A DNA stretch of 13,997 bases from Gemmatimonadota bacterium (GCA_039589315.1 JBDHHQ010000103.1:1-13997), one strand, 5' to 3'. Positions 1,251 through 13,997 are shown, counted from the stretch's first letter. The notes: generated from the sequence alone by a model not told the origin. Numbers and translations are program-made.

Positions 1251-4200
1251 CTACTGCAGCCGCTCGAGAATGGCCGCCAGGGCGGCCTTCTGGTTTCGCA
1301 GAGCCTCGAGCTCTCCAGCCTCCGCACCGTCGATGGCCTTGAGCAGGAATCCGAGCTGATCGCGCACCGATGCGTGCTCGCGCGCGGAGCCTTCCTTCTC
1401 GACGAGCTGCTCCCAGATCCGGCCCAACCGCTCGACGTTCTCGTTCAGCTTCCCTTCATAGAGGAACCGGAGCGTCTCCGCCTCGGGCTCGTAGACCCGG
1501 TCCCAGAAGTCGTGTGCGTCGCGCGCACGGAGAGCGGCCAGCTCTTCCCCGCGCCGAAGCGCCTCTTCGAAGTCCGCCTTCGACAGGTAGCGCAGCTGCG
1601 TCTCCTCCGGCTGCTCATCCCACGGCCCCCCCAGGACCAGCACCCCCGTGAGGGCGTTCAGCAGCGCGTACGGCTTCCGGCTGCTGAGCTCGTGCGCGTT
1701 GGTGTAGGCTCCGACCATGGTGCGCAGGGCGGCCTCGCAGACCCCCCGCGCCTTGGCTACTCCTGCCCACCGCTTCGCGACGCTGCCGAGGAGGGCATAC
1801 CGCTCGTTGGTGGGCCCGATCTCGATGAGCCTCTCGAGCTCCCTCACGGACTTGTCGATGAGCCCGAGAGCTCTTTCTCGCTCCGCTTCGGAGGCTGGAT
1901 GGTCGGGGTCGCCGTGGAGGAACCTCTCCGCCGCTGCCCGAGCCCGGATGTTCGCCAACTGCTCGAGGTCCTTCATGCGCAGCGCGCCGCTGTCCCGGTC
2001 CCGCGCCTTCTCGTACCAGTCCACCGCTTCGTCTCTTCGGCCCAGCTCGGCGGCGGCTCGGGCCAGCGCAGCTAACACCCGGCCATCCTCCATCCATGAC
2101 GGCCGAAGCCTCACGATGTTCTCGCGGATCTCGTCGAACCGCTGGTTCAGCTCGAGTCTCCGCTCCTCCTGTCTGAGCCGGACTTTGGCGCCGCTCGCCA
2201 GGTTGTCCAGGGCAGACACGACCTGATCCTGGTCCAGGAATCGGGTTCGCGGAGCCGGCCCCTTCTTCCCGCGGAGGACGAGCCGGAAGCCCGGATCGCC
2301 GTAGCACTGGTACGCACCCCAGGTGTTGACCTTCGTAAACCGCTCGTAGATGTGCTGCCGGGCCACGCGCACCGATTCTCCAAACGTTCTCCCGTCCAGC
2401 ATGGCCTCGTAGAAGCGCTCGGCGAAGGCCGTGGCGGCCCGATCGTCCACCGCCCACCCGGCCGCGATCACCGCCCTCACCCCGTTTTGGATGAACTGGG
2501 AGGCCATATTGGACGCCAGCTGAGGCCGGTCCTTCAGGTATTCGGTGTCCCGCGCCTGCCTCCCGAGGTGGCAGCAATTCAGGAAGACCAGGTCCGGGAC
2601 CGCGGGCATCTGCAGGACCTCGTCGGGCCGGAGCAGGACGGTCCGGTACCGGGGCGACCCGTCCTCCTTCTCGCCGGTCTTGGTCTTTCCGATCACGACC
2701 CCCACCCTGGGAGGATCGCCTTTCCGGTAGTCGCCGTGCGCGGCGATGTGGAGCACGCGGTACCGGTTCTTCAGGAGCGCCTTCAGGATCGACGCCGGAC
2801 CGATCTCGGAGTTGTCGTGGCGGATCTGCTGCGTGACGTCCCAGCCGCCCGATGCGTCCAACCCCTTCCGTCCCAGCACCCTGACCACGGCCCTCGCCTC
2901 GGCTTGGGCACCCTTGAGCTCGGACCAGTGGCTCGGGGGATCTCCGATGACGAATACGGTGTCACTGTGCGCCGACTCCAGCGTCTGAGGCACATCCACC
3001 CGGAGGTTGCGGATCAGCCCCGCGCCCACGCACAGCGGATGACCCGAGCCACGGAACCGATCGATCATCAACTCCCAGGGGAACTGGGCTGCCCCGTCAT
3101 CCAGGACCAGGATCGTGTCACGGCGCTCGGGCGCCAGCGTCTTCAGCTCGTTCGAGAAGAGCAACTCGAAGAGCGCTCCAGGAGCCTCCAGGTCGACGGC
3201 TTTCCGTTCCCGGACCTCGTCCAGGAGCTGGTCGACCAGGGCCCGCTGCACGTGCAAGCTGGAATCCTCGACCCGGGCGCGGCCGGTGGGAGAAGAGAAC
3301 CGCAGCTCGTTCTTCACCATCTCGATCCGCAGGCGATCCCACCACCCCGGCGCGGACCCGTAGGACGCGCGCCGCTGTCCGCTGTCATGGTGCTGGAGCG
3401 GCTCGACCTTTATGAGAGGCCCGTTGTCCGAGACGAACTCGGTCTCACCGTAGACCCGCTCCAGGGCGTCCATGGCCTGGAGCGCCTGGTCCCGGTACAG
3501 CTCGATCAGCTCCACGTGACCGATCCAGGGTGCCGCATCGCCCCGACCGGCCTGCAGCTCGGCATTGGCCTGGATCACCGCCCTGAGGATAGCGCGCACG
3601 GACGCCTCCACGGAGACGCCACCCTCCCCGCTCCCCAGGAGCAGGAAGGAGAGCTCCAGGCCTTCTGTCTCGCCGAGCTTCCAGGCAGCCTCGGCATACC
3701 GGAGGATTCCTCTCTTGACCGTCGTGGTCAGGGCGCGAGGACTCAGCTGCCCAACCTCACCGAGCCCCACGACCACGGCTCCCGGGTGTCCGGAGTCCTC
3801 CGCTCCGGGATGCCCGGAGCTGTCGGCTCCGAGGAGCACCTCATTGGTGCCGATTGGGCCCGGATAGAGCTTGAGCTGGTGGAGCCGCGACAACCTTCCG
3901 TGGACCAGGTAATCCAGCGCCTCTTCGCCGTGGAGGATACCGTCACCATCGTAGTGCCCCACGACCACCGGGCTGTCGGCCGTCGCCAGGTCTGCGTGGA
4001 ACACGTTGACCCGGACCCGGCGAAGGGGACGTCCTTCCTCCACCGGAGTGTACCCCCACGCCGCCTCGGTCAGGAACGCTTTGCCGGGCGCTGGTGGGAT
4101 CGAGTCATCGGGCAGGTCGGCGGCTTCCTCGTCGTTGGCAGACACCGGCGGGTCCTTGGGGAGCGCCTGTGTATCGCCGTCCTCCAGGAGCTCGGCCAGG

Positions 4201-5294
4201 GCGTCGAACGCTGGTGTGTGATCGCATAGCCGACCGTGCTCCGCGTCCGCGTACCAGCGCTCCACGCCGTCGGGTGCTCCTCCATCCCACAACACCCGGC
4301 CATCCCCTCGGTTGGAGCCTTTGAAGGACGGGGCACCGGCACCTGTCGAGATGTGGGCCGGAGTCGCCGCCGCCCGTCCGGCCACGTAGAGGATCCGCTC
4401 CGGGTGGGGGATGGGCTGATCGAGTGCGATCCTGAAGGTCCGGGCGCCTTCGAGGAGCTGCCGGTCCGGGGCCCGGGGGAGCGCGTCGTCACGGTGGGCA
4501 TCGAGCACCTGCCAGGTATCCGCATCGAACAGGTCGAGCTCCCCACCCGGCAGTGTTTCCAGGATTCCGGGGAAGCCCCGGAAGGTCTCGACGATCGGCC
4601 GGTCCTGCCCCTCGAAGTCGAGGCTCGCCAGCCCCCGGGTCAGCGAGTCGCGGCCCAGCAGCATCCGGACGGTGGAAACGGCCCCGCTGTTCGGCGTGCC
4701 CACCATGACGAGCCGACATCCGTCGCGCGAGGCGAGCTCCTCCCACACGTCGGGCGCCTCGAGGATCATTCCTCGCGCGACCAGGCCGCCCGTAGAGTGG
4801 GCCAAGACGCGGATGGGGCCCTCGGTCTCGGCCAGCTTCTTCTCGATTTCCGCTGCCAGGGCCCGGCCTGCCACGCGGTGTGACCGCCGCCAATCATAGG
4901 TGAACGGCACGATGTCGTAGGTCGACTCGAGGTGACGGTAGAGCTTGGTGTACCCGGTCCAGATCGTGCCACCGAGCTCGACCTGCGGGCCCGCCGGCAG
5001 CCGACCGCGGACCTCGGCCTCGAGGCGGTCCTGCGCGCGAGAAGCTCCGTCGCGCTCTGCTCCCTCGCTCGTCGGGCCGGCCGCGGAGCCGTCTCCCTCG
5101 ACTGTCGAAGCCTCCTGCCCCGGGTCGATCCAGGCCAGCTTGTCGAGCCCACTTCTGGCCAGCGCGTGGACGTCGAACCAGACCCCGGTCCCGTCGGCCG
5201 ACAAGGCGATGCGCATCGTGCCCGGGATGAAGAAGAGTACGGGCTTCCCCGAGCCCTTCCGCTTCGTTGTGGCGTCCTTGCTCGAATCGGACAT
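1251..5294 (-). CDS. CHAT domain protein: alpha/beta-hydrolase (lipase/LCAT/PGAP1-like) + M17 aminopeptidase N-terminal-like domain + CHAT caspase-like cysteine protease + C-terminal TPR-like region
   Basis: 1347-aa ORF. Hydrolase motifs: FFIPG, FTYDWRRS, LAHSTGGLVAR (Ser167), LVMVGTPNSG, GDGRV (Asp331), EHGRL (His353). CHAT motifs: QFPWELM, VLHIAAHGDY (His853), LVFLNCCHLG (Cys908), GVRAVIAAGWAVDDRAATAFAERFY, TWGAYQCYGDP. The C-terminus has helical TPR-like repeats. Confidence 0.92.
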   Translation of the reverse strand: MSDSSKDATTKRKGSGKPVLFFIPGTMRIALSADGTGVWFDVHALARSGLDKLAWIDPGQEASTVEGDGSAAGPTSEGAERDGASRAQDRLEAEVRGRLPAGPQVELGGTIWTGYTKLYRHLESTYDIVPFTYDWRRSHRVAGRALAAEIEKKLAETEGPIRVLAHSTGGLVARGMILEAPDVWEELASRDGCRLVMVGTPNSGAVSTVRMLLGRDSLTRGLASLDFEGQDRPIVETFRGFPGILETLPGGELDLFDADTWQVLDAHRDDALPRAPDRQLLEGARTFRIALDQPIPHPERILYVAGRAAATPAHISTGAGAPSFKGSNRGDGRVLWDGGAPDGVERWYADAEHGRLCDHTPAFDALAELLEDGDTQALPKDPPVSANDEEAADLPDDSIPPAPGKAFLTEAAWGYTPVEEGRPLRRVRVNVFHADLATADSPVVVGHYDGDGILHGEEALDYLVHGRLSRLHQLKLYPGPIGTNEVLLGADSSGHPGAEDSGHPGAVVVGLGEVGQLSPRALTTTVKRGILRYAEAAWKLGETEGLELSFLLLGSGEGGVSVEASVRAILRAVIQANAELQAGRGDAAPWIGHVELIELYRDQALQAMDALERVYGETEFVSDNGPLIKVEPLQHHDSGQRRASYGSAPGWWDRLRIEMVKNELRFSSPTGRARVEDSSLHVQRALVDQLLDEVRERKAVDLEAPGALFELLFSNELKTLAPERRDTILVLDDGAAQFPWELMIDRFRGSGHPLCVGAGLIRNLRVDVPQTLESAHSDTVFVIGDPPSHWSELKGAQAEARAVVRVLGRKGLDASGGWDVTQQIRHDNSEIGPASILKALLKNRYRVLHIAAHGDYRKGDPPRVGVVIGKTKTGEKEDGSPRYRTVLLRPDEVLQMPAVPDLVFLNCCHLGRQARDTEYLKDRPQLASNMASQFIQNGVRAVIAAGWAVDDRAATAFAERFYEAMLDGRTFGESVRVARQHIYERFTKVNTWGAYQCYGDPGFRLVLRGKKGPAPRTRFLDQDQVVSALDNLASGAKVRLRQEERRLELNQRFDEIRENIVRLRPSWMEDGRVLAALARAAAELGRRDEAVDWYEKARDRDSGALRMKDLEQLANIRARAAAERFLHGDPDHPASEAERERALGLIDKSVRELERLIEIGPTNERYALLGSVAKRWAGVAKARGVCEAALRTMVGAYTNAHELSSRKPYALLNALTGVLVLGGPWDEQPEETQLRYLSKADFEEALRRGEELAALRARDAHDFWDRVYEPEAETLRFLYEGKLNENVERLGRIWEQLVEKEGSAREHASVRDQLGFLLKAIDGAEAGELEALRNQKAALAAILERLQ
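3778..3830 (-). repeat. In-frame 24-bp tandem duplication inside the CHAT gene (GADSSGHP / GAEDSGHP / GA)
   Basis: 3778-3801 gctcccgggtgtccggagtcctcc and 3802-3825 gctccgggatgcccggagctgtcg; SGHPGA occurs twice at an 8-aa period. Confidence 0.75.
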
Positions 5295-5772: not shown

Positions 5773-7308
5773 TCATCTGTCTCCTACGGAATAGCGAGCA
5801 CGCAAGCGATCCAACCCCCAATGGAACGTATACAGGTATCTGGAGCGCCATCGTTGATGCGATCGATCACCGAGGAGGCGTGGCACGATGCGCCGCAGGC
5901 CACGGCGCCTCCGGAGCCAGCTCTCTGCCTTGCCCAAGTTCCCTTTCACGTAGTAGGGGACCTGGCCGATCTGCGCTTCCACCAGGCGGGACCGGAGAGC
6001 AGGATCGACGCTTTCGTGATAGAACGACAGGAAGTCTGCCTCCCAGCGGGGTGAGAGGGTCACCACCTCCGCAATGTCCGCCGAACCGCCCATCTTCGTC
6101 TGGCCGAAGAGGGGCCGAGGGACGCCTGCCTCCTCCAGCAGCCGTCGCGGGATCGGGCGATCGTAGCTCCCGCCGATCCGCCAGGGCACCATCTCGGGGC
6201 TGCGGGAGATGCGGTTCAGCACCGGAGCATAGACGCCTAGTGTGTACGGTACCGGGAAGTGGTAGTAACCGAGGCGCAGCCGCACTTCGGTGGAGTTGGC
6301 CCCTGCCATGCTCATCGAGATGGGATCCTCGAACCAGGGCTGCGAAGCAAGCGGATCGAGGTCCCAGAACTGCTCGCCGTGTCTCCCGCTCATCCAGAGC
6401 TTTCCCTCCAGCTGGGAGCCCATGATGGGGGTCTGGACCTCCGTCGAGAAGAACGGATTGGTGAAGAACTCGGCAGGGCCCGGCTCTTCGATCCCCCTGA
6501 CGTCCTGCCGTTCGTAGGCCGTGACCTCCAGATCGAGGTACCTGGCGAGCTCTGTGCCATCGTCAGGCATGTACTGGGTGGTGGGGCCGGTCCGGTCGCC
6601 ACTCTTGAGAAACGTCACCGCATGCTCGCAGCCGGCGCGTGTGGCGAGGACCGACACCGCGGCGGAATCGTACCCGCGGGAGATGGAGGACAGAGCCTCG
6701 AATCGACGGCTCCTGCCGTGGTCCGACGCGTTCGTCATGACGCGTCCGACCGTGCGCTGCATGAAGTCCACGTAGCCCTGATAGTCGGTCGGTGCTCCCC
6801 CGAAGCTCTTGTGGACCAAGGCGATCGTCAGATCGAGACCGATCAGGAAGTTGACACAATCGAATAGCTCGACCGAGTTGCCGGAGGCGGTGGGCAGCGT
6901 CTTGCCACGGACGCTCAGGCCGGTTCGATAGTGACCCAGCAGATCGAAGAAGTAGTTGGGATGGCCGAGGTCCAGCTCCTCACCGGCCTCCACGAGCGCG
7001 AACACCAACGAGTTGGAGACGTGCAGCTCGTTCCCGACTCGGATGGCGAACAGCCGCTCCAGGTTGTGGGTCGCGGCACAGAACAGGACCCCGTGGGGCG
7101 AGATCATCCCGCCCGATCCGGTAAGGGTCACAGCCCGGTCGAATCCCCGCTCCTCGAACGGCCCGTCCCATGCGCCATCGACGAAGAAATCGGCCCCGGT
7201 CTCGAGCCAGGGCCCGTGTAGCACCCGCACCTGCTCGCTGCCCTTCGTGAGCTTCGCGCACCAGGCCAGCCGAGGCAGCTCGTCGAGGCGTCTGAAATCG
7301 AAATGCAT
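5773..7308 (-). CDS. Asparagine synthetase-like (adenine nucleotide alpha-hydrolase / PP-loop) ATP-dependent ligase of unknown substrate, 511 aa
   Basis: The likely start is the ATG at 7308 (MHFDFRRLDELPRLAWCA), because the longer ORF to 7731 overlaps tctB and its extension is low-complexity. AsnB-like motifs occur in the expected order: LERLFAIRVGNELHVSNSL (Ntn-like), ISRGYDS (PP-loop, residues 210-215), AVTF, DDGTELARYL, LWMSGRHGEQFW, FPVPY, DRPIPRRLLEEAGVPRPLFGQTKMG (Lys405). Confidence 0.7.
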   Translation of the reverse strand: MHFDFRRLDELPRLAWCAKLTKGSEQVRVLHGPWLETGADFFVDGAWDGPFEERGFDRAVTLTGSGGMISPHGVLFCAATHNLERLFAIRVGNELHVSNSLVFALVEAGEELDLGHPNYFFDLLGHYRTGLSVRGKTLPTASGNSVELFDCVNFLIGLDLTIALVHKSFGGAPTDYQGYVDFMQRTVGRVMTNASDHGRSRRFEALSSISRGYDSAAVSVLATRAGCEHAVTFLKSGDRTGPTTQYMPDDGTELARYLDLEVTAYERQDVRGIEEPGPAEFFTNPFFSTEVQTPIMGSQLEGKLWMSGRHGEQFWDLDPLASQPWFEDPISMSMAGANSTEVRLRLGYYHFPVPYTLGVYAPVLNRISRSPEMVPWRIGGSYDRPIPRRLLEEAGVPRPLFGQTKMGGSADIAEVVTLSPRWEADFLSFYHESVDPALRSRLVEAQIGQVPYYVKGNLGKAESWLRRRRGLRRIVPRLLGDRSHQRWRSRYLYTFHWGLDRLRARYSVGDR

Positions 7309-7331
7309 ACGAATACGGTGGGGATCGACCC

Positions 7332-7835
7332 CTACCCCACCAGCGCGGGAGGGAAGGGCACGTTCAGGAGGACGCCGAAGACCAGGTAGAAGAAACCGGC
7401 AGTCAGCATGGTGATGACGAGCGTCTTGCTCCACGCTACGTGGGCCTCGACGCGAAGGTACGGCGCCAGGTACAGGGGCACGGCCGCCAGGAATCCCACG
7501 GTGTACACGAGTGCCAGAAGCAGCGCGCCCCACAGCGTCAGGCGAAGCTCCCGTGAGCGCCGCGGCCTCCTCCGATCGCCGGACACGTGGAGCCGAAGGC
7601 GAAGCTCGACGCGCTCCGCGGTGCCCCGGAGCGTGTCTCCGTGCAGGGCGCGGAAGGCCCTGTCCGGAAGCGCGGTCCCCTCCAGAACGAGCTCCAGGAT
7701 CAAGAGCGCCAGCGTCGGCAAGATCACCCACAGAGGGGCGAGCCGGCTGCCGGGCGCCAGGTAGAGGGTCTGGACGAGAAGGACCACACCCACCCCGGTC
7801 AGGATGGCCGTGAAGAGCATCCCCCGGGCTCTCAT
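7332..7835 (-). CDS. tctB: Tripartite tricarboxylate transporter small membrane subunit TctB, 167 aa
   Basis: The ATG at 7835 overlaps the tctA stop (ATGA). Several hydrophobic helices are present, with GFLAAVPLYL and the C-terminal YLVFGVLLNVPFP typical of TctB. Confidence 0.85.
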   Translation of the reverse strand: MRARGMLFTAILTGVGVVLLVQTLYLAPGSRLAPLWVILPTLALLILELVLEGTALPDRAFRALHGDTLRGTAERVELRLRLHVSGDRRRPRRSRELRLTLWGALLLALVYTVGFLAAVPLYLAPYLRVEAHVAWSKTLVITMLTAGFFYLVFGVLLNVPFPPALVG

Positions 7836-9334
7836 GAGGACACCCCTCGTCGTCGCTGGAGCGCTCGATTGATCACCGGCCACGCCATCGTCGCGGCCAA
7901 CAATGCGAAGAGCGCCAGGGATATGGGGCGATCCAGCAAGCTCAGCCGATCGAGCTCGTGGAGCCGCAGCGTAAGGTGGAGGTTGGTCTCGAACAGCGCG
8001 GCGAGGACCAGGGCGATCACGAAGGAGACCCGGGGCCAACCGTGGACCTTCATGGCGTATCCCAACACGCCGAACCCCACCGCGAGCAGCAGGTCTCCCA
8101 TGCTCCCCCGATACGCCAGCGCAGCGAGCACGACCAGCAGCGTGATGATCGGGACGATGATCTGAGCCGGCACCAGCGTGAGACGCGAAAAGTGTCCCGC
8201 GGTGGCGAGCCCGAGGACGGACGTGAGCCAGTTCGAGAAGAAGAGCGACCAGATCAGCACGAAGACGAGGGTGAGCTGATCCTGGAGGAGCTCGGGACCC
8301 GGCACGATGCCGTGGAGCGTCAGGGCGGCGAGCAGAAGAACCGTGCCCTCGCTACCAGGGATCCCGAATGCCAGCACCGGGAGCAGGGAGCCGCCATCCT
8401 TGGCGTCGTTCGCGGCTTCCGGCGCCAGGACACCTCGGATGTCCCCCTCGCCGAACTTGCCGTCCTTCGCACCGTGGGCCGCCTGCCCGTACGCGACGAA
8501 GCTCGCTACGGTACCGCCAATACCCGGGACCATGCCGATCATGGTTCCCAGGACGGAGCTGCGCGCGAACAGACCCGGGTTCTTCAGGACGGCCAGCACT
8601 CCGGCCCGAGTGCTCCCTGCCGCCGCGTCCACGTCGCTCTGGCTCGAGATTCGCTCCCGGCGCGACACGTACAATTCCATCATCTCCGCCAGGCCGAAGA
8701 GGCCGAGGAACACCGGGATGACCGACACCCCGTCGACCAGATACTCGGAGCCGAGCGCGTAGCGTAGCTCGGCGGTTCGAGGGTCCATCCCCACGAAGCC
8801 GACCATGAGCCCCAGACCCGCAGCGATGAGCCCCTTGAGCACGGCGCGTCGGCTTACCAGAGCGATGGTCGCGAGTCCCCAGATCGCCAGCAGGAGGAAC
8901 TCCAGGGGTCCGAACAACAGCAGCACACGCCGAATCACCGGAATGAACGCCACCAGGAGGATGATGCCGACGGTCGACCCCAGCGCGGATGCCGTCGCCG
9001 AGCAAGCGATGGCGGTCCTGGCCTCCCCCTGCTGCGCCAAGGGATAGCCGTCCAGCATCGTCGCGGCATTGGGGGCAGTGCCGGGGATGTTGAAGAGGAT
9101 CGAGGTTACCGACCCCATGAAGGTGCCCCCTCCGACCAGCGCTCCGAACAGCAATACCGTGGGGAGCGGGTCCCAGGAGAACGTCCAGGGAACGGCCAGG
9201 GCCATCAGCGTGACCCCGCCGATCCCCGGAAGGAAGGAGAACACCATGGCCAGCAGCGTACCAGCCACCGGGTAGAGGATGTTCGGCCAGGCCAAGAGGA
9301 TCTGGAGACCCTCCAACGCCGACGCCAGAATCAC
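7832..9334 (-). CDS. tctA: Tripartite tricarboxylate transporter permease TctA, 500 aa
   Basis: TctA signatures LPGIG, GSVTSILFNIPGTAPNAATMLDGYPLAQQG, GMVPGIGGTVASFVAY, GVLAPEAANDAKDGGSLLPVLAFGIPGS, HGIVPGP. GTG start with GGAG upstream. Confidence 0.96.
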   Translation of the reverse strand: MILASALEGLQILLAWPNILYPVAGTLLAMVFSFLPGIGGVTLMALAVPWTFSWDPLPTVLLFGALVGGGTFMGSVTSILFNIPGTAPNAATMLDGYPLAQQGEARTAIACSATASALGSTVGIILLVAFIPVIRRVLLLFGPLEFLLLAIWGLATIALVSRRAVLKGLIAAGLGLMVGFVGMDPRTAELRYALGSEYLVDGVSVIPVFLGLFGLAEMMELYVSRRERISSQSDVDAAAGSTRAGVLAVLKNPGLFARSSVLGTMIGMVPGIGGTVASFVAYGQAAHGAKDGKFGEGDIRGVLAPEAANDAKDGGSLLPVLAFGIPGSEGTVLLLAALTLHGIVPGPELLQDQLTLVFVLIWSLFFSNWLTSVLGLATAGHFSRLTLVPAQIIVPIITLLVVLAALAYRGSMGDLLLAVGFGVLGYAMKVHGWPRVSFVIALVLAALFETNLHLTLRLHELDRLSLLDRPISLALFALLAATMAWPVINRALQRRRGVSS

Positions 9335-9374
9335 GTCGGTCTCCGGCGAATCGCGGGCTCAGCACAGGGAGCCG

Positions 9375-10520
9375 TCAACGTCCCGCCGACCCTGTTCGGG
9401 CCTCTGTGAGGTACTCGCGAAACACCGCGCCCAGGGCTTGCAGCTCCGGCCCGGCGGCCTCGAGCTCGGCGGCGACCACCGATGCCTCGGCAAAGGCCAT
9501 CTTGCGGCGCGCCCCCGCGGCACGGGCGATGAACGCGCTGTCGTGCATCACCTGCGCGAAGCGATCCCTCAAGCAGCTCGTCAGCAGAGGGTCCAACCCG
9601 GGTGGAGCGACGACCATCCGCCCGGCCTGAAACATCCGGGCCAGAGCCGCGGCCCGTGCCACCATGGGCTCCGGGTCTTCACCCAGCTCCTTGGCCCGCT
9701 TGGCCGCGAGTCCGTTCTCCCCCACCACGACCGGAACGTCTCGCAGAGCGGGGAGAGGTTGTGCCGAGTACCGGGAGATCTGGGCTATCGGCCGAAGCCC
9801 ACCGGGCTCGATCCGGTCAAGCATCGAATCGAAGGTGTAGCCGGCCAGGTCGAATTCGCCCCTCATCAAACCGAGCGAGGACTCACGGGTGCCTGGGTAG
9901 CCGGCCACGTACGTGGCATCGAGGTCCAAGAGGTCCGAGGCGATGACGTACCAGATCCAGGCCGTGGACCCGACCCCGACGATGCCGAAGACCAACGGGC
10001 CGTCTGCCGTGCCTACTCTCAACTCCTCCAACGTCCGATTCGGAGAGTCCCAGGCCGTGAACAGGACCGGGGAAGGGACAGAGAGCCGGCCGATGGCCGT
10101 AAAATCTCGGGTGGGGTGGATGTTCGAATCGTGACCCAACAGGGCCTGGGTGAGCAACGCAGACCCGTTCACGATCCCCAGCGTCCGGCCGTCGGGGTCG
10201 GCGTCCCGAATCGTGCGAGCGCCGACTCGACCCGCGGCCCCGAGGCGGTGCTCGATCACGATCTCGGCGCCGATGGCTTCTTCGTAGAAGGGTTCGAGCA
10301 AACGGGATTGGACGTCGTACCCGCCCCCGGGCGTATAGGGCACGATCCAGCGTACCGTACGACCGTCCAGGCCGGGGCACGCGGCGTTCGCAGTAGACGA
10401 AGCGGCGGCGGCATCACCTCCGCCCGGATCGCACGCCGCCACGACACCGACGGCCAACGCTAGGCCGGGCCTCGCGAGGCGGACGGTCCTGCCGAGCTTT
10501 GCCACGAATCCATCGATCAC
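9375..10520 (-). CDS. tctC: Tripartite tricarboxylate transporter substrate-binding protein (Bug/TctC family), probable lipoprotein, 381 aa
   Basis: Bug motif VRWIVPYTPGGGYD followed by HRLGAAGRVG...DPDGRTLG, plus GYPGTRESSLGLMRGEFD and VVAPPGL. The signal peptide ends in VAAC (Cys30). GGAGG lies 7 nt before the GTG. Confidence 0.93.
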   Translation of the reverse strand: MIDGFVAKLGRTVRLARPGLALAVGVVAACDPGGGDAAAASSTANAACPGLDGRTVRWIVPYTPGGGYDVQSRLLEPFYEEAIGAEIVIEHRLGAAGRVGARTIRDADPDGRTLGIVNGSALLTQALLGHDSNIHPTRDFTAIGRLSVPSPVLFTAWDSPNRTLEELRVGTADGPLVFGIVGVGSTAWIWYVIASDLLDLDATYVAGYPGTRESSLGLMRGEFDLAGYTFDSMLDRIEPGGLRPIAQISRYSAQPLPALRDVPVVVGENGLAAKRAKELGEDPEPMVARAAALARMFQAGRMVVAPPGLDPLLTSCLRDRFAQVMHDSAFIARAAGARRKMAFAEASVVAAELEAAGPELQALGAVFREYLTEARTGSAGR

Positions 10521-10583
10521 TGCACAACCTCCCGGTTGGGCGCTTCACGGCTTCCTGGCCAGGGGTGTCGCCAGGGAGGGCAA

Positions 10584-10685
10584 GACCCGTGCCGGAGCCC
10601 CACTACCACCTCCGTGTGGTCAAACCGGCTCCGGGCGTCCGGGACGGGTCGACACACTCCCACCATCGGGAGCTCGCGCGCGAGC
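10584..10685 (-). promoter_or_regulatory. Extended imperfect stem-loop plus adjacent palindromes between the NUDIX gene and tctC
   Basis: GACCCGT (10584-10590) / ACGGGTC (10644-10650), CCGGAGCC (10592-10599) / GGCTCCGG (10627-10634) and ACCAC (10605-10609) / GTGGT (10616-10620) are nested. CTCCC-6-GGGAG lies at 10657-10672, and a perfect 14-bp palindrome GCTCGCGCGCGAGC at 10672-10685. The function is not established. Confidence 0.35.
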
Positions 10686-10710
10686 GCCGGCGCGCTCCGG
10701 GGGGCAAGCC

Positions 10711-11169
10711 CTACCCGAGCTTCTCGACCAGCTCCACCAGCAGAGGTAGCTGCGCGGGGTTGATCCGGCGACCCGCGTCGTCCAGCGTGAACCACGCCGC
10801 GCGGTCCACCTCCGGGAACTCCCTCATGCGTCCCGACCGGGGCGGCCACTCCATCGTGAACGTGTTGCTGCTCAGCTGCCGGGGGTCCACATCGCCCTCG
10901 ACCCCCCAGGCGATCACCGTCTTGCCGCTCCGTTGACGGACCGGCGCCAACGCGATGAAGTCGCCCACGGGGCGCATCCCGACCTCCTCCTCGAACTCCC
11001 GGCAAGCGGCGTCGAGGGCGTCTTCTCCCTCTCCGTACTCGCCCTTGGGGACCGACCAGGCCCCATCATCCTTCTTCGCCCAGAACGGACCCCCAGGGTG
11101 CACCAGCAGAAACTCCAAGCCATGCGGGCTCCGGCGATAGAGAACGATGCCCGCGCTTTGCCGACTCAC
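10711..11169 (-). CDS. NUDIX hydrolase (predicted NTP pyrophosphohydrolase, HPGGPFW subfamily), 152 aa
   Basis: SAGIVLYR, LLVHPGGPFWAKKDDGAWSVPKGE, Nudix box GEYGEGEDALDAACREFEEEVG, SNTFTMEWPPRSG and FPEVDRAAWF. The GTG at 11169 has GAGGAG 6 nt upstream and is preferred over the ATG at 11211. Confidence 0.93.
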   Translation of the reverse strand: MSRQSAGIVLYRRSPHGLEFLLVHPGGPFWAKKDDGAWSVPKGEYGEGEDALDAACREFEEEVGMRPVGDFIALAPVRQRSGKTVIAWGVEGDVDPRQLSSNTFTMEWPPRSGRMREFPEVDRAAWFTLDDAGRRINPAQLPLLVELVEKLG

Positions 11170-11318
11170 ACCCGTCTCCTCAACGGGGTGCGTGGCTGGT
11201 CGCCGCCGCATGACCCCCGATGGACAGGAGGCAGGCCACCGACGTATCTGATGTCAGGAGAGCTCATATGTGGACATCCCTCGACGGGTTTCTACCTGGA
11301 CACTGAAGGAGCATCCGC

Positions 11319-13997
11319 GTGCCTACGCTTCGGAATGCCATCCCAACGCTGACCGTCCTTCTCGCCGTCCTGGTCACGGCGGCCATACAGGAGCCGGTCA
11401 CGGCGCAGGTACCGGCGCAGGGGCGCCCGGCGGCGGTCTCCGTCCCGGACCTGACGACCCCCGCCAAGCAGTTCGGCCACGACATCGGCGCCGACTACAC
11501 CCTGCCCAACTACCGGCAATTGACCGAGTACTGGCAAGTACTGGCTGCGGAGTCGGACCGGATGGAGCTGGTCGAGATCGGGCGTACGGCCGAGGGACGG
11601 AGCCAACTCATGGCCGTCGTGACGTCACCGGAAAACCACGCACGGCTCGACCGATACAAGGGGATCGCCGAGAGGCTCGCGCGAGCCGAGGGCGTCACCG
11701 AGGCCGAGGCGCGAGACCTGGCCCATGAGGGGAGGGCCGTGGTGTGGATCGACGGAGGACTCCATGCCACGGAAGTCCTGGGCGCCCAGCAACTCATGGA
11801 GACGCTGTGGCAAATGGTCAGCGGCACGGACGACGAGACGCTGCGCATCCTGAACGACGTGATCATCCTCTTCGTGCACGCAAACCCGGACGGCCACGAC
11901 CTGGTGGCGGACTGGTACATGCGAAACCCGGAGCCCACCGAGCGCTCCACCAACGGCGTCCCTCGGCTCTACCAGAAGTACATCGGGCACGACAACAACC
12001 GGGACTTCTACGCGTCGACCCAGGCCGAGACCGAGAACATGAACCGCGTCCTGTACCGGGAGTGGTATCCCCAGATCACGTACAATCACCACCAGACCGG
12101 TCCGCCAGGGGCGGTCATGTTCGCTCCGCCATTCCGGGATCCGTTCAACTACGTCTACGACCCCCTCGTGGTCACCGGCATCGATCTGGTAGGCTCGGCG
12201 ATGCACAACCGCTTTGCCGTGGAGGGCAAGGGCGGCGTGGTGCGACGCCGCGGCGCCAACTACTCCACGTGGTGGAACGGTGGTCTCCGCACCACGGTGT
12301 ACTTCCACAACATGATCGGGCTCCTGACGGAGACGATCGGGAACCCCACGCCCATCGAGATTCCCACCGTCACGACCCGGATCCTCCCCAACGGAGACAT
12401 GCCCAATCCCATCCAGCCACAGGCGTGGCACTTCCGGCAGTCCATCGACTACTCGGTGACCGCCAACCGGGCCGTGTTGGACGTGGCCTCGCGCTACCGG
12501 GAGACCTTCCTGTTCAACATCTGGCGAGCCGGGATGAACTCCATCGAGCGTGGCAGCCGGGACCATTGGACGGTCTACCCGAAGAGCGTGGATGCGCTGA
12601 AGGAGGCACTGGGGACCGACGAGAGCAGCGACTTCGCGAGCCTGCCCGGCGGGCTCGGAGGGATGCCGGGACCCATCGAGGACTACGAGCTCCTGCACAA
12701 GCCCGAGCTGAGGGATCCCCGGGGCTACATACTATCGGCCGACCAGCCCGACTTTCCCACGGCCGGCAAGCTCGTCAACGCCCTCCTGGAGACCGGAATC
12801 ACCGTGCGCCGGGCGACGGCACCTTTCACGGTAGAGGGCAGGTCGTACCCTGTGGGGTCATACGTGGTGAAGACGGCCCAGGCGTTCCGGCCCCATGTCC
12901 TGGACATGTTCGAGCCACAGGATCACCCGAATGATTTCGCCTATCCGGGCAGCCCGCCGACGCCGCCCTACGACAATGCCGGCTGGACCCTGGCCTACCA
13001 GATGGGGGTGCAGTTCGACCGCGTGCTCGACGGATTCGACGGTCCCTTCGAGGTGATCGAAGACTGGAACGTATCGCCCCCTCCTGGAGCGGTGGCGTCG
13101 GCCGACGGGGCGGAGGGCTTCCTCTTCAGCCACGCGGTGAATGACGCCTTCAAGGTGATCAATCGCCTCGAGAGCTCGGGAGAGGAGGCCTACTGGCTGT
13201 TGGAACCGCATACGAGCGGTGGCACTCGATGGGACGCCGGGACGTTGTACGTGGCCTCGAGGCGAGGCACCGCGTCGCGGCTCGAGGCGCTGGCCACCGA
13301 AACCGGTGTGCACTTCGTGGGGGTGCCCAGCAAGCCCGACGTCGAGGCGCTTCGCCTACGTCCCACCCGTATCGCGCTCTGGGACACGTACGGCGGGTCG
13401 ATGCCATCGGGATGGATCCGGTGGATTCTGGAGCAGTGGGAGTACGCCGACGTGGAGGTCGTATTCCCGCCGCAGCTCGACGAAGGCGACCTGAACGATG
13501 ACTACGACGTCATCATCCTGCCCGACGGTGCCGTGGGCACAGGCGGCGGGTTCGCCCGTTTCTTCGCGAGCATGCCGCAGGAGATGATCGAGCGCCTCAT
13601 GAGGCAGTTCGGCTTCGGGCCGCCAGACCCCGAAACGGTGCCGGAGGAGTGGCGCGTCCGCATGGGGAGCGTGAGCGACTCCATCACCGTCCCCATCCTG
13701 CGGGAGTTCCTGGAGGACGGCGGTACCATCGTAACGATCGGGCACTCCACCCAGTTGGCGGACAAGCTGGGGCTCCCGGTGGGGAACGCTCTGATCCCCG
13801 AGGGCGGCGAGGAGCCGGTGGGTCGGGAAGAGTATTACGTCCCCGGGTCGATCCTCGAGGTGGCCGTGGACCGGACCCATCCGGTGGCACACGGCATCGG
13901 TGACCGGGTGGACGTGATGTTCGACAACAGCCCCGTGATGTCCGTGGGCCAGAACAGCGGGCTCGACCGGATCGCCTGGTTCGACAAGGCTGATCCG
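11319..13997 (+). CDS. Secreted M14 family zinc carboxypeptidase with a C-terminal class I glutamine-amidotransferase-like domain, running off the right edge (>893 aa)
   Basis: The GTG at 11319 has AAGGAG 7 nt upstream. The signal peptide reads MPTLRNAIPTLTVLLAVLVTAA...VTAQ. M14 motifs: IGRTAEGR, WIDGGLHATE (HxxE), NPDG, GHDNNRDF, YNHHQ. Later segments read RIALWDTYGGSMPSGWIRWILEQW, YDVIILPDG and LREFLEDGGTIVTIG. The same frame ends ...FDNSPVMSVGQNSGLDRIAWFDKADP at 13997. Confidence 0.93.
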   Translation, partial: MPTLRNAIPTLTVLLAVLVTAAIQEPVTAQVPAQGRPAAVSVPDLTTPAKQFGHDIGADYTLPNYRQLTEYWQVLAAESDRMELVEIGRTAEGRSQLMAVVTSPENHARLDRYKGIAERLARAEGVTEAEARDLAHEGRAVVWIDGGLHATEVLGAQQLMETLWQMVSGTDDETLRILNDVIILFVHANPDGHDLVADWYMRNPEPTERSTNGVPRLYQKYIGHDNNRDFYASTQAETENMNRVLYREWYPQITYNHHQTGPPGAVMFAPPFRDPFNYVYDPLVVTGIDLVGSAMHNRFAVEGKGGVVRRRGANYSTWWNGGLRTTVYFHNMIGLLTETIGNPTPIEIPTVTTRILPNGDMPNPIQPQAWHFRQSIDYSVTANRAVLDVASRYRETFLFNIWRAGMNSIERGSRDHWTVYPKSVDALKEALGTDESSDFASLPGGLGGMPGPIEDYELLHKPELRDPRGYILSADQPDFPTAGKLVNALLETGITVRRATAPFTVEGRSYPVGSYVVKTAQAFRPHVLDMFEPQDHPNDFAYPGSPPTPPYDNAGWTLAYQMGVQFDRVLDGFDGPFEVIEDWNVSPPPGAVASADGAEGFLFSHAVNDAFKVINRLESSGEEAYWLLEPHTSGGTRWDAGTLYVASRRGTASRLEALATETGVHFVGVPSKPDVEALRLRPTRIALWDTYGGSMPSGWIRWILEQWEYADVEVVFPPQLDEGDLNDDYDVIILPDGAVGTGGGFARFFASMPQEMIERLMRQFGFGPPDPETVPEEWRVRMGSVSDSITVPILREFLEDGGTIVTIGHSTQLADKLGLPVGNALIPEGGEEPVGREEYYVPGSILEVAVDRTHPVAHGIGDRVDVMFDNSPVMSVGQNSGLDRIAWFDKADP

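Follow-up and report, generated by a model that had tools for sequence, protein, structure and literature searches.

A CHAT protease fused to an LCAT-type hydrolase in Gemmatimonadota, a short member of a large family of candidate sensor-gated proteases

The stretch of DNA analysed here, referred to as the window, comprises 13,997 nucleotides (nt) from a Gemmatimonadota bacterium (GCA_039589315.1 JBDHHQ010000103.1:1-13997) and carries on its minus strand, at positions 1251..5294, an open reading frame (ORF) for a protein of 1347 amino acids (aa). Judging from its sequence, the protein is a short member of a family with the architecture DUF7379-LCAT-macro-CHAT-TPR-S, which is large and uncharacterised. 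The anatomy, conservation and gene neighbours of this family are reported below as observed, whereas its gating, specificity, cleavage and killing are proposed. The best-supported reading for the family is that a gated Arg-directed protease would release the hydrolases at its own N-terminus and might also set off a caspase cascade. For the window protein we tentatively favour a sensor-gated Arg-directed protease of this bacterial conflict or regulated-death family, which would act in trans with its lipase-like domain kept attached. The features of the gene are as follows (conservation counts refer to 119 aligned homologues).

1251..5294, minus strand: ORF, LCAT-type hydrolase, macro/M17-N-like domain, CHAT and TPR-S (Pfam, family search)
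1254..2237, minus strand: TPR-S/ASK1-type helical tail, aa 1020-1347 (Pfam TPR-S, structural match)
2277..3374, minus strand: CHAT protease region, aa 641-1006 (Pfam, fold, conservation)
2442-2444, minus strand: Asp951, candidate S1 residue (119/119 homologues)
2571-2573, minus strand: Cys908 of the CHAT dyad (119/119)
2736-2738, minus strand: His853 of the CHAT dyad (119/119)
3429..4016, minus strand: domain of macro/M17-N fold, aa 427-622 (structural matches)
3618-3644, minus strand: Gly-rich loop LLLGSGEGG within that domain
4017..4160, minus strand: linker between hydrolase and macro-like domain, aa 379-426 (family alignment)
4161..5246, minus strand: alpha/beta hydrolase of LPLA2/LCAT fold, aa 17-378 (structural match 4x97, profile match 4x90)
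4236..4238, minus strand: His353, predicted triad base (118/119)
4302..4304, minus strand: Asp331, predicted triad acid (119/119)
4794..4796, minus strand: Ser167, predicted nucleophile (114/119; aligned with the LPLA2 nucleophile motif)
4995..5132, minus strand: lineage-specific disordered insertion, aa 55-100, with an SRA word (R86) common to the congener (alignment gaps, model confidence)
5208..5225, minus strand: altered oxyanion-side loop PGTMRI, aa 24-29, PGIMGS in the family (homologue alignment)

The GC content of the ORF is of the coding type (0.72, 0.47 and 0.85 at the three codon positions). An initial annotation, made from the sequence alone, had proposed this four-domain anatomy, and predicted models bear it out, matching LPLA2, the macro/M17-N fold, separase and Csx29, and the central region of ASK1. 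All motifs that it quoted are in place on the minus strand, with Ser167 in AHSTG, Asp331, His353, His853 in AHG and Cys908 in LNCC, and both the hydrolase triad and the CHAT dyad are conserved at the counts listed above. No signal peptide was seen, in agreement with the same annotation: the peak 19-residue value in a hydropathy scan (not SignalP) was just 1.16, and therefore neither a signal peptide nor a membrane helix was called. Searches of NCBIfam with the protein and of Rfam across the window returned zero matches, and scans of either flank revealed no promoter-like sites and no terminator on the gene's strand. Pieces about 90% alike and spanning the gene occur in four DNA sequencing runs (the listed differences do not cover the codons of the PGTMRI loop); none of the sequencing runs listed was an RNA run carrying the gene.

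Two AlphaFold2 models were considered, one of aa 420-1347 (predicted local distance difference test, pLDDT, 87; predicted template modelling score, pTM, 0.83) and one of aa 12-1010, hydrolase included (pLDDT 81.5, pTM 0.62). Because pTM is higher when the hydrolase is omitted, the macro-like, CHAT and TPR domains were taken as a core to which the hydrolase is tethered; the models suggest that the three fold into one compact unit, with the hydrolase loosely placed relative to it.

The hydrolase model matched LPLA2 (4x97) with a Z-score of 26.5 (root mean square deviation, rmsd, 3.0; 301 residues aligned), as well as LCAT, Tle4 (Z 23.3) and PlaB (Z 18.3), and its profile matched 4x90 (E 8.5e-8). 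The Pfam LCAT match (aa 128-213, E 2.8e-4) is slightly below the cut-off, and a weak DUF7379 match also falls on this domain. A divergent oxyanion loop had been suspected, and the divergence is real: instead of the PGxxG loop beside the oxyanion hole (PGDLGN in LPLA2), in which the family keeps Gly in 115/119 and Ser or Thr in 117/119 sequences, the window protein has PGTMRI, and its counterpart in the sole congeneric genome (the congener, 86% identical) has PGAMRV. A sequencing error or pseudogene as the source of PGTMRI was ruled out by the congener together with the substitution ratios given below. The disordered insertion is mostly matched by gaps in the homologues, and pLDDT is below 50 for aa 56-83.

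The middle domain had been likened to the non-catalytic N-terminal domain of M17 aminopeptidases. The resemblance holds for the fold, which is equally that of a macro domain, a point that had been missed: macroH2A (1zr3; rmsd 2.8, 168 aligned) and the N-terminal domain of a leucyl aminopeptidase (7y1s) were matched with the same Z-score of 16.3. In Pfam searches with 66 family members, Peptidase_M17_N (PF02789) was matched by 37 and any macro family by none; the window protein itself had no PF02789 match at E 0.1. No match to the catalytic C-terminal M17 domain was found, and CHAT comes next instead. Macro pockets that bind ADP-ribose carry GD, NAAN and a Gly-rich GTGxG loop. The first of these is G[DN] in the family and AD here, an invariant GH[YF]xxD stands in place of NAAN, and the Gly-rich loop was aligned by profile, weakly (E 0.099), with that of the Thermus macro-fold protein 2dx6. 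His447, Asp451, Glu457 and Tyr477 are invariant (119/119 and 65/65 sequences), which suggests that these polar residues mark a pocket or a fixed interface. Alone, the macro-like domain matches 1743 clusters at 50% identity.

The protease is recognised by Pfam CHAT (PF12770; aa 707-1000, E 6.5e-29, above the cut-off), and its model is most similar to separase (Z 20.7, rmsd 4.1, 291 aligned), with Csx29 at Z 19.9. Asp951 lies 43 residues past Cys908, a spacing of 39-55 across the family. As described in passages of PMC9729208, D2151 of separase recognises the P1 Arg, and Csx29 (catalytic Cys 627), which has another specificity, has K670 there. A profile search of the CHAT part against PDB gave no residue alignment with separase. 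PADLOC returned a weak SAVED_CHAT match covering aa 842-982 only, within the CHAT part, and an Asp also occupies the aligned place in SAVED-CHAT. Asp at such a position is widespread in CHAT domains and, being a general feature of them, Asp951 is compatible with Arg specificity but is no proof of it. The tail matches Pfam TPR-S (PF20308; aa 1088-1216, E 2.7e-10, above the cut-off) and, as a model, the central regulatory region of ASK1 (5ulm; Z 20.3, rmsd 3.8, 264 aligned), in line with the TPR-sensor-like tail described at the outset.

A whole-protein search yielded 585 relatives among 7992 scored candidates, the best 120 of the 585 being 31-38% identical over most of their length. At least 598 of 599 candidate stretches were confirmed in GTDB genomes, and neighbourhoods were studied in 80 fetched loci from Proteobacteria, Bacteroidota, Nitrospirota, Acidobacteriota, Desulfobacterota, Planctomycetota and others. 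Relatives labelled 'CHAT domain-containing protein' had been anticipated, and a Pfam architecture so annotated exists. What had been overlooked is the usual form of the family and a full-length paralog in the same genome. The usual form is of about 1800 aa, with an N-terminal extension of at least 420 aa in 108/119 aligned homologues; the extension comprises two parts, a pro-region (about 130-160 aa) and DUF7379 (PF24096), which is another alpha/beta hydrolase with invariant HSRGG, D and H. All six parts are present in 57 proteins of the fetched loci, the own-genome paralog counted. Three loci (L019, L039 and L058) encode macro-CHAT-TPR alone and one (L049) a form without the LCAT domain, and hydrolase-free forms also make up 17 of 140 further proteins, some possibly fragments; by sequence, the macro-CHAT-TPR-S unit thus also exists without hydrolases. 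In the literature searched, which leaves most subscription journals aside, no paper describes this architecture or names DUF7379, and the passages of PMC8195603 do not describe it. Viral contigs gave 19 pattern matches and a metagenome scan with the hydrolase alone 69 matches, of which none was confirmed as a relative.

Conserved Arg residues border the hydrolases of the family. Between 6 and 12 residues past the conserved end of LCAT, an R[GAS] word is found in 94 of 117 relatives and any Arg in 107 (excluding the window protein, the congener and one fragment), against a background of 12% over all windows of 7 residues and of 10% farther down the linker. In a second set, the 101 of the 140 further proteins in which the anchor was found, R[GAS] is present in 85 (8-residue window) and any Arg in 99. 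The pro-region has three conserved Arg positions, occupied by Arg in 105, 101 and 106 of the 108 long forms; at the third position the Arg is part of RG in 98. Among 38 loci in which no C14 or C11 protease is adjacent, 36 retain the linker word, one miss being the window protein (the search pattern located the linker in just 48 of 82). The long paralog of the window genome retains it as well, though no stand-alone C14 gene was found in that 95%-complete genome. Since the word is kept where no such protease adjoins, cutting by the CHAT domain is favoured.

Gene neighbours were assigned with Pfam for 123 direct flanking genes in the 80 loci and for 62 chosen second neighbours of 114; the counts are not phylogenetically corrected, and several loci are close kin. 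A C14 caspase gene adjoins the family gene in 19 loci, in 16 of them directly upstream on the same strand. Further direct flanks encode clostripain (3), TPR-S proteins (6), TIR (4) and MACPF (1), and second neighbours add TIR in five more loci, so that TIR lies within two genes in 9/80. Together, a clan-CD protease, TPR-S, TIR or MACPF gene is at most two genes away in 32 of the 80 loci; in control genomes C14 was found in 1/14 and TIR_2 in 4/14. An R[GASD] word follows the catalytic Cys by seven residues in 19 of 20 neighbouring caspases. The word may serve these caspases for self-activation, by analogy with MaOC1, or be cut by CHAT, by analogy with the SAVED-CHAT/PCaspase pair. Three features of the family are new here, namely the Arg words of linker and pro-region, the invariant S1-like Asp and the conflict-type neighbours, and as sequence features they support, at the family level, a release of effectors by Arg-directed cleavage.

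The window copy is homologous, through its macro-CHAT-TPR core, to the Pfam architecture DUF7379, LCAT (PF02450), CHAT and TPR-S, and departs from it in four respects: it lacks the pro-region and DUF7379, has PGTMRI instead of the loop with Gly and Ser, contains the 45-aa disordered insertion, and has no Arg where the linker word is expected, near aa 384-390 (nt 4125-4145). Since the congener has all four departures, they are not errors; no remnant of the pro-region or DUF7379 was found upstream of the gene. Matches at E 1e-30 occur in 3 of 61 related genomes, namely the window genome, the congener and one with a partial LCAT-CHAT protein. A 1110-aa LCAT-like and CHAT protein at L090:5595-8924 (G060) has a TRG word directly before its hydrolase, and its match to the window protein spans aa 106-384 only.

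Both genomes of the genus also hold the full-length paralog with its Arg words intact (C10:74755-80196 in the window genome). In a FastTree phylogeny of 93 macro-CHAT sequences (7 of 100 left out as incomplete; midpoint root), the short form falls within the long forms (support 0.96), and the long paralog of its own genome is not its sister, which rules out a recent duplication from that paralog. Ratios of nonsynonymous to synonymous substitution rates (dN/dS) between the two species are 0.12 for the hydrolase, 0.12 for the macro-like domain, 0.06 for CHAT, 0.07 for TPR, 0.25 for the linker and 0.59 for the insertion; the long paralog has 0.10 in its LCAT domain and 0.05 in its linker. As dN/dS is low in all four domains, the gene, hydrolase included, is maintained, and by these estimates the window copy is under purifying selection.

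In both species, a gene of about 310 aa (L089:14246-15172 and L088:10358-11305) with a weak match to Vps62 (E 7.6e-6) comes after the long paralog and is a candidate partner of it.

The window gene itself stands alone between TctABC, NUDIX and M14-peptidase genes on one side and nucleoside-recognition, Mur-ligase and LD-carboxypeptidase genes on the other, in an order conserved in the two species. The other features of the window are the following.

1-548: nucleoside-recognition/spore-maturation-type membrane gene, at the left edge
5773-7365, minus strand: ORF of about 530 aa with a conserved counterpart in the congener and no Pfam, NCBIfam or PADLOC match
7332-13997: TctB, TctA, TctC, NUDIX hydrolase and M14 peptidase (contig end)

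No partner gene is adjacent in the window, as the initial annotation had remarked for a separate substrate. The SRGYDS word in ORF 5773-7365 is reminiscent of asparagine-synthetase-like ATP loops. The window genome has five TIR_2 matches elsewhere, and no TIR gene adjoins the family gene in the window.

Taken together, these data lead us to the following working model. The macro-like, CHAT and TPR-S domains are predicted to form one compact unit, which is also found without hydrolases. The TPR-S tail, the macro-fold pocket or both would keep the protease inactive in the absence of a signal, which might plausibly be an ADP-ribose-type molecule made by TIR-like enzymes. Once active, CHAT would cleave after Arg in small-residue words of the form [SA]R↓[GA]; in the form of about 1800 aa such words occur within the pro-region and immediately after the LCAT-type lipase, and cleavage there would free the two hydrolases and might also open an adjacent caspase, with membrane damage and cell death as the outcome. 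Pro-region, first hydrolase, linker Arg and the Gly and Ser of the oxyanion-side loop have all been lost from the short copy, which would therefore probably act on substrates in trans; an obvious candidate is the full-length paralog of its own genome, where the Arg words are retained. The lipase domain of the short copy would likely be a tethered, altered or regulatory module.

The idea of a regulated module in which protease and lipase serve conflict or cell death, put forward initially, thus receives support at the level of the family, through the linker Arg sites and the caspase, TIR and TPR-S neighbours, but not from the window locus.

Several points weigh against our reading. The window locus is a syntenic housekeeping region without a defence neighbour and not a defence island, and 48 of the 80 family loci are without any of these conflict-type neighbours. 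PADLOC, run on 58 chosen neighbours, gave mostly domain-level matches and no recurring named system; the context is therefore one of conflict-type domains and not of classic defence islands. The middle domain is, by sequence, nearer to M17-N than to any macro family. The equivalence of Asp951 and separase D2151 is based on spacing and not on a residue-level superposition, and the conserved linker Arg could be structural. The dN/dS intervals of the linkers overlap (0.10-0.51 in the window copy, 0-0.18 in the long paralog). The short form is known from two genomes only, and its co-occurrence with the long form may be chance. The hydrolase, in which two near-invariant small residues are replaced by Arg and Ile, may be inactive.

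The strongest alternative, though in our view an unlikely one, is close to the original proposal that the protein frees its own lipase: the chain would cut itself at another site (R86, a basic LRR stretch before the macro-like domain, or a non-Arg site) and release an active membrane-damaging enzyme. The triad is intact, dN/dS of the hydrolase is 0.12 as against 0.10 in the long paralog, the domain is loosely placed in the model, and the SRA word of the insertion is common to the congener. Moreover, related caspase-like proteases can be promiscuous after Arg, according to parts of 10.1101/2024.10.24.620036, and passages of PMC6027918 indicate that the residue beside the oxyanion hole of LPLA2 tolerates substitution. 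However, the acidic Pro-rich linker, which is the place of the family Arg, has none in either short copy, and the Gly-to-Arg and Ser-to-Ile/Val changes affect near-invariant loop residues. A cut at R86 would split the hydrolase instead of releasing it, and a 6-residue match around SRA is expected by chance within a 61%-identical stretch. These points, together with the housekeeping locus, weaken the original proposal.

We also give a low probability to a role outside defence, in which a regulated lipid-remodelling, developmental or lysis/export protein would use its protease as an ordinary signalling switch. This would fit the stable synteny among transport and cell-wall genes in the two species, the peptidoglycan-hydrolase genes that adjoin 12 of the 80 family loci, the lack of a recurring named defence system at these loci and of a confirmed relative in viral contigs. 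The patchy range of the gene among the 61 related genomes and the TIR, TPR-S, patatin, caspase and MACPF neighbours speak against it, and the CHAT domains of known structure that come closest include those of proteins acting in defence or its regulation.

Clostripain and orthocaspases are Arg-directed, and a third possibility is that such a partner cuts the Arg words, CHAT being the downstream executioner and the short copy having escaped control. Excerpts of PMC7475262 report that MaOC1 self-activates at Arg219, which the R[GASD] words of the neighbouring caspases recall, and family genes do have a caspase gene directly upstream on the same strand (16/80) or a clostripain neighbour (3). Yet the words persist where no such protease adjoins and in a genome where no stand-alone C14 gene was found, so that we consider this quite improbable. 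A functionless, decaying paralog, for which the two lost N-terminal modules, the long insertion, the altered loop, the lost Arg and the restriction to one genus might be adduced, is very unlikely, given a frame open in two species at about 82% nucleotide identity, dN/dS of 0.06-0.12 in all four domains and the retention of all catalytic residues.

A bolder version of the favoured reading, of an Arg-directed protease acting in trans, would see in the family a single-chain immune cassette: the macro pocket would read a TIR-derived ADP-ribose-type alarm, and the separase-like protease would cut its own Arg-Gly sites, free two phospholipases and open the neighbouring caspase. The window gene would then be a split-off initiator that triggers the full-length paralog, the two forming an initiator-executioner pair. 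We regard this combination as rather improbable.

By analogy, the window protein resembles SAVED-CHAT, Csx29 and type IV Thoeris in logic, while lacking the features that define each of them. In the SAVED-CHAT cascade, PCaspase is reportedly cut at R153, a site that was not found in the preprint cited for this system below. SAVED-CHAT/PCaspase of type III-B CRISPR (8tl0) likewise combines a sensor-CHAT protein with a caspase nearby, and the family often has a caspase directly upstream; in place of SAVED, however, the window protein has the macro-fold and TPR-S domains, the hydrolases belong to the same chain, and no cas genes were seen in the window. In the parts of 10.1101/2023.06.23.546230 concerned, SAVED-CHAT joins a ligand sensor to CHAT and cleaves a caspase whose gene is close by. 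Csx29 TPR-CHAT (Craspase), DdvA and gasdermin-associated CHAT share the TPR-gated CHAT fold, the His-Cys dyad and an effector activated by cleavage (the Runella CHAT cuts gasdermin after Leu247, according to a portion of 10.1101/2021.06.07.447441). The window protein differs in its C-terminal, ASK1-like TPR, in having Asp and not Lys at the S1 position, and in that the candidate effector is the fused lipase. Craspase or gasdermin neighbours were not found in the window, which holds TctABC, NUDIX, M14-peptidase and nucleoside-recognition-type genes and the unassigned ORF; the search for Cas7-11, Csx30 or gasdermin did not extend to the remainder of the genome.

Separase (C50), the best structural match of the protease, is Arg-directed and has an S1 Asp, but it is eukaryotic, regulated by securin and devoid of lipase or macro domains. 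With LPLA2/LCAT, Tle4 and PlaB the hydrolase shares its fold and the YDWR, HSxG and GxP motifs; in contrast to these, it is cytoplasmic, fused to a protease and has PGTMRI for PGxxG, its activity being a prediction. Type II Thoeris uses a macro domain to sense His-ADPR (histidine-linked ADP-ribose), and type IV relies on a caspase-like protease, specific for Arg, that is switched on by a TIR signal, as far as the source passages go. TIR genes near family loci recall these systems, whereas the window protein has no membrane helix, a CHAT and not a C14 protease, and no adjacent TIR gene.

In the CHAT systems that have been characterised, the substrate is a separate protein (Csx30, PCaspase or gasdermin), while a single chain of the family combines candidate effectors with predicted cut sites and two candidate sensors. 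If the model is right, LCAT-type lipases would join the proteolytically released death effectors, DUF7379 would gain a role, and a macro-gated protease might be added to ADP-ribose signalling. The window copy, a natural variant without the cut site, is a useful contrast and not the best member for the release model. Compact operons of a caspase and a family gene are available in cultured strains, namely Azotobacter chroococcum (L050), Thauera sp. 2A1 (L032) and Denitromonas halophila (L059).

Some loci deserve separate mention. Immediate neighbours of the family gene in L003, L010, L018, L021, L023, L026, L030, L037, L047, L053, L059 and L061 encode peptidoglycan hydrolases or binding proteins (M15, PG_binding_1, muramidase), which possibly reflects a lysis step; in L023, a tail-sheath gene is present as well, two genes upstream. 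For the N-terminal part of one TPR-S neighbour, an atlas search gave only leads below 0.9 to MAP3K_TRAF_bd. At L039:1601-8332, a MACPF-like gene, a hydrolase-free macro-CHAT-TPR gene, a 232-aa gene of no assigned family and a Tle1-like phospholipase gene follow each other on one strand, so that effectors may here be separate genes, possibly with a pore former opened by the protease. In A. chroococcum DSM 2286 (L050:1135-15211), two full-length family genes lie in tandem behind the caspase gene. Proteins of 1436-1623 aa with a C-terminal C14 caspase, preceded by more than 1100 residues without a Pfam match, are encoded downstream of the family gene at L005:12833-17140, L011:12675-17153 and L058:13784-18652. 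L035:4912-14620 has a clostripain-family gene upstream and a TIR-patatin fusion downstream of the family gene, and at L040:12833-15469 a TPR-S-patatin fusion lies downstream.

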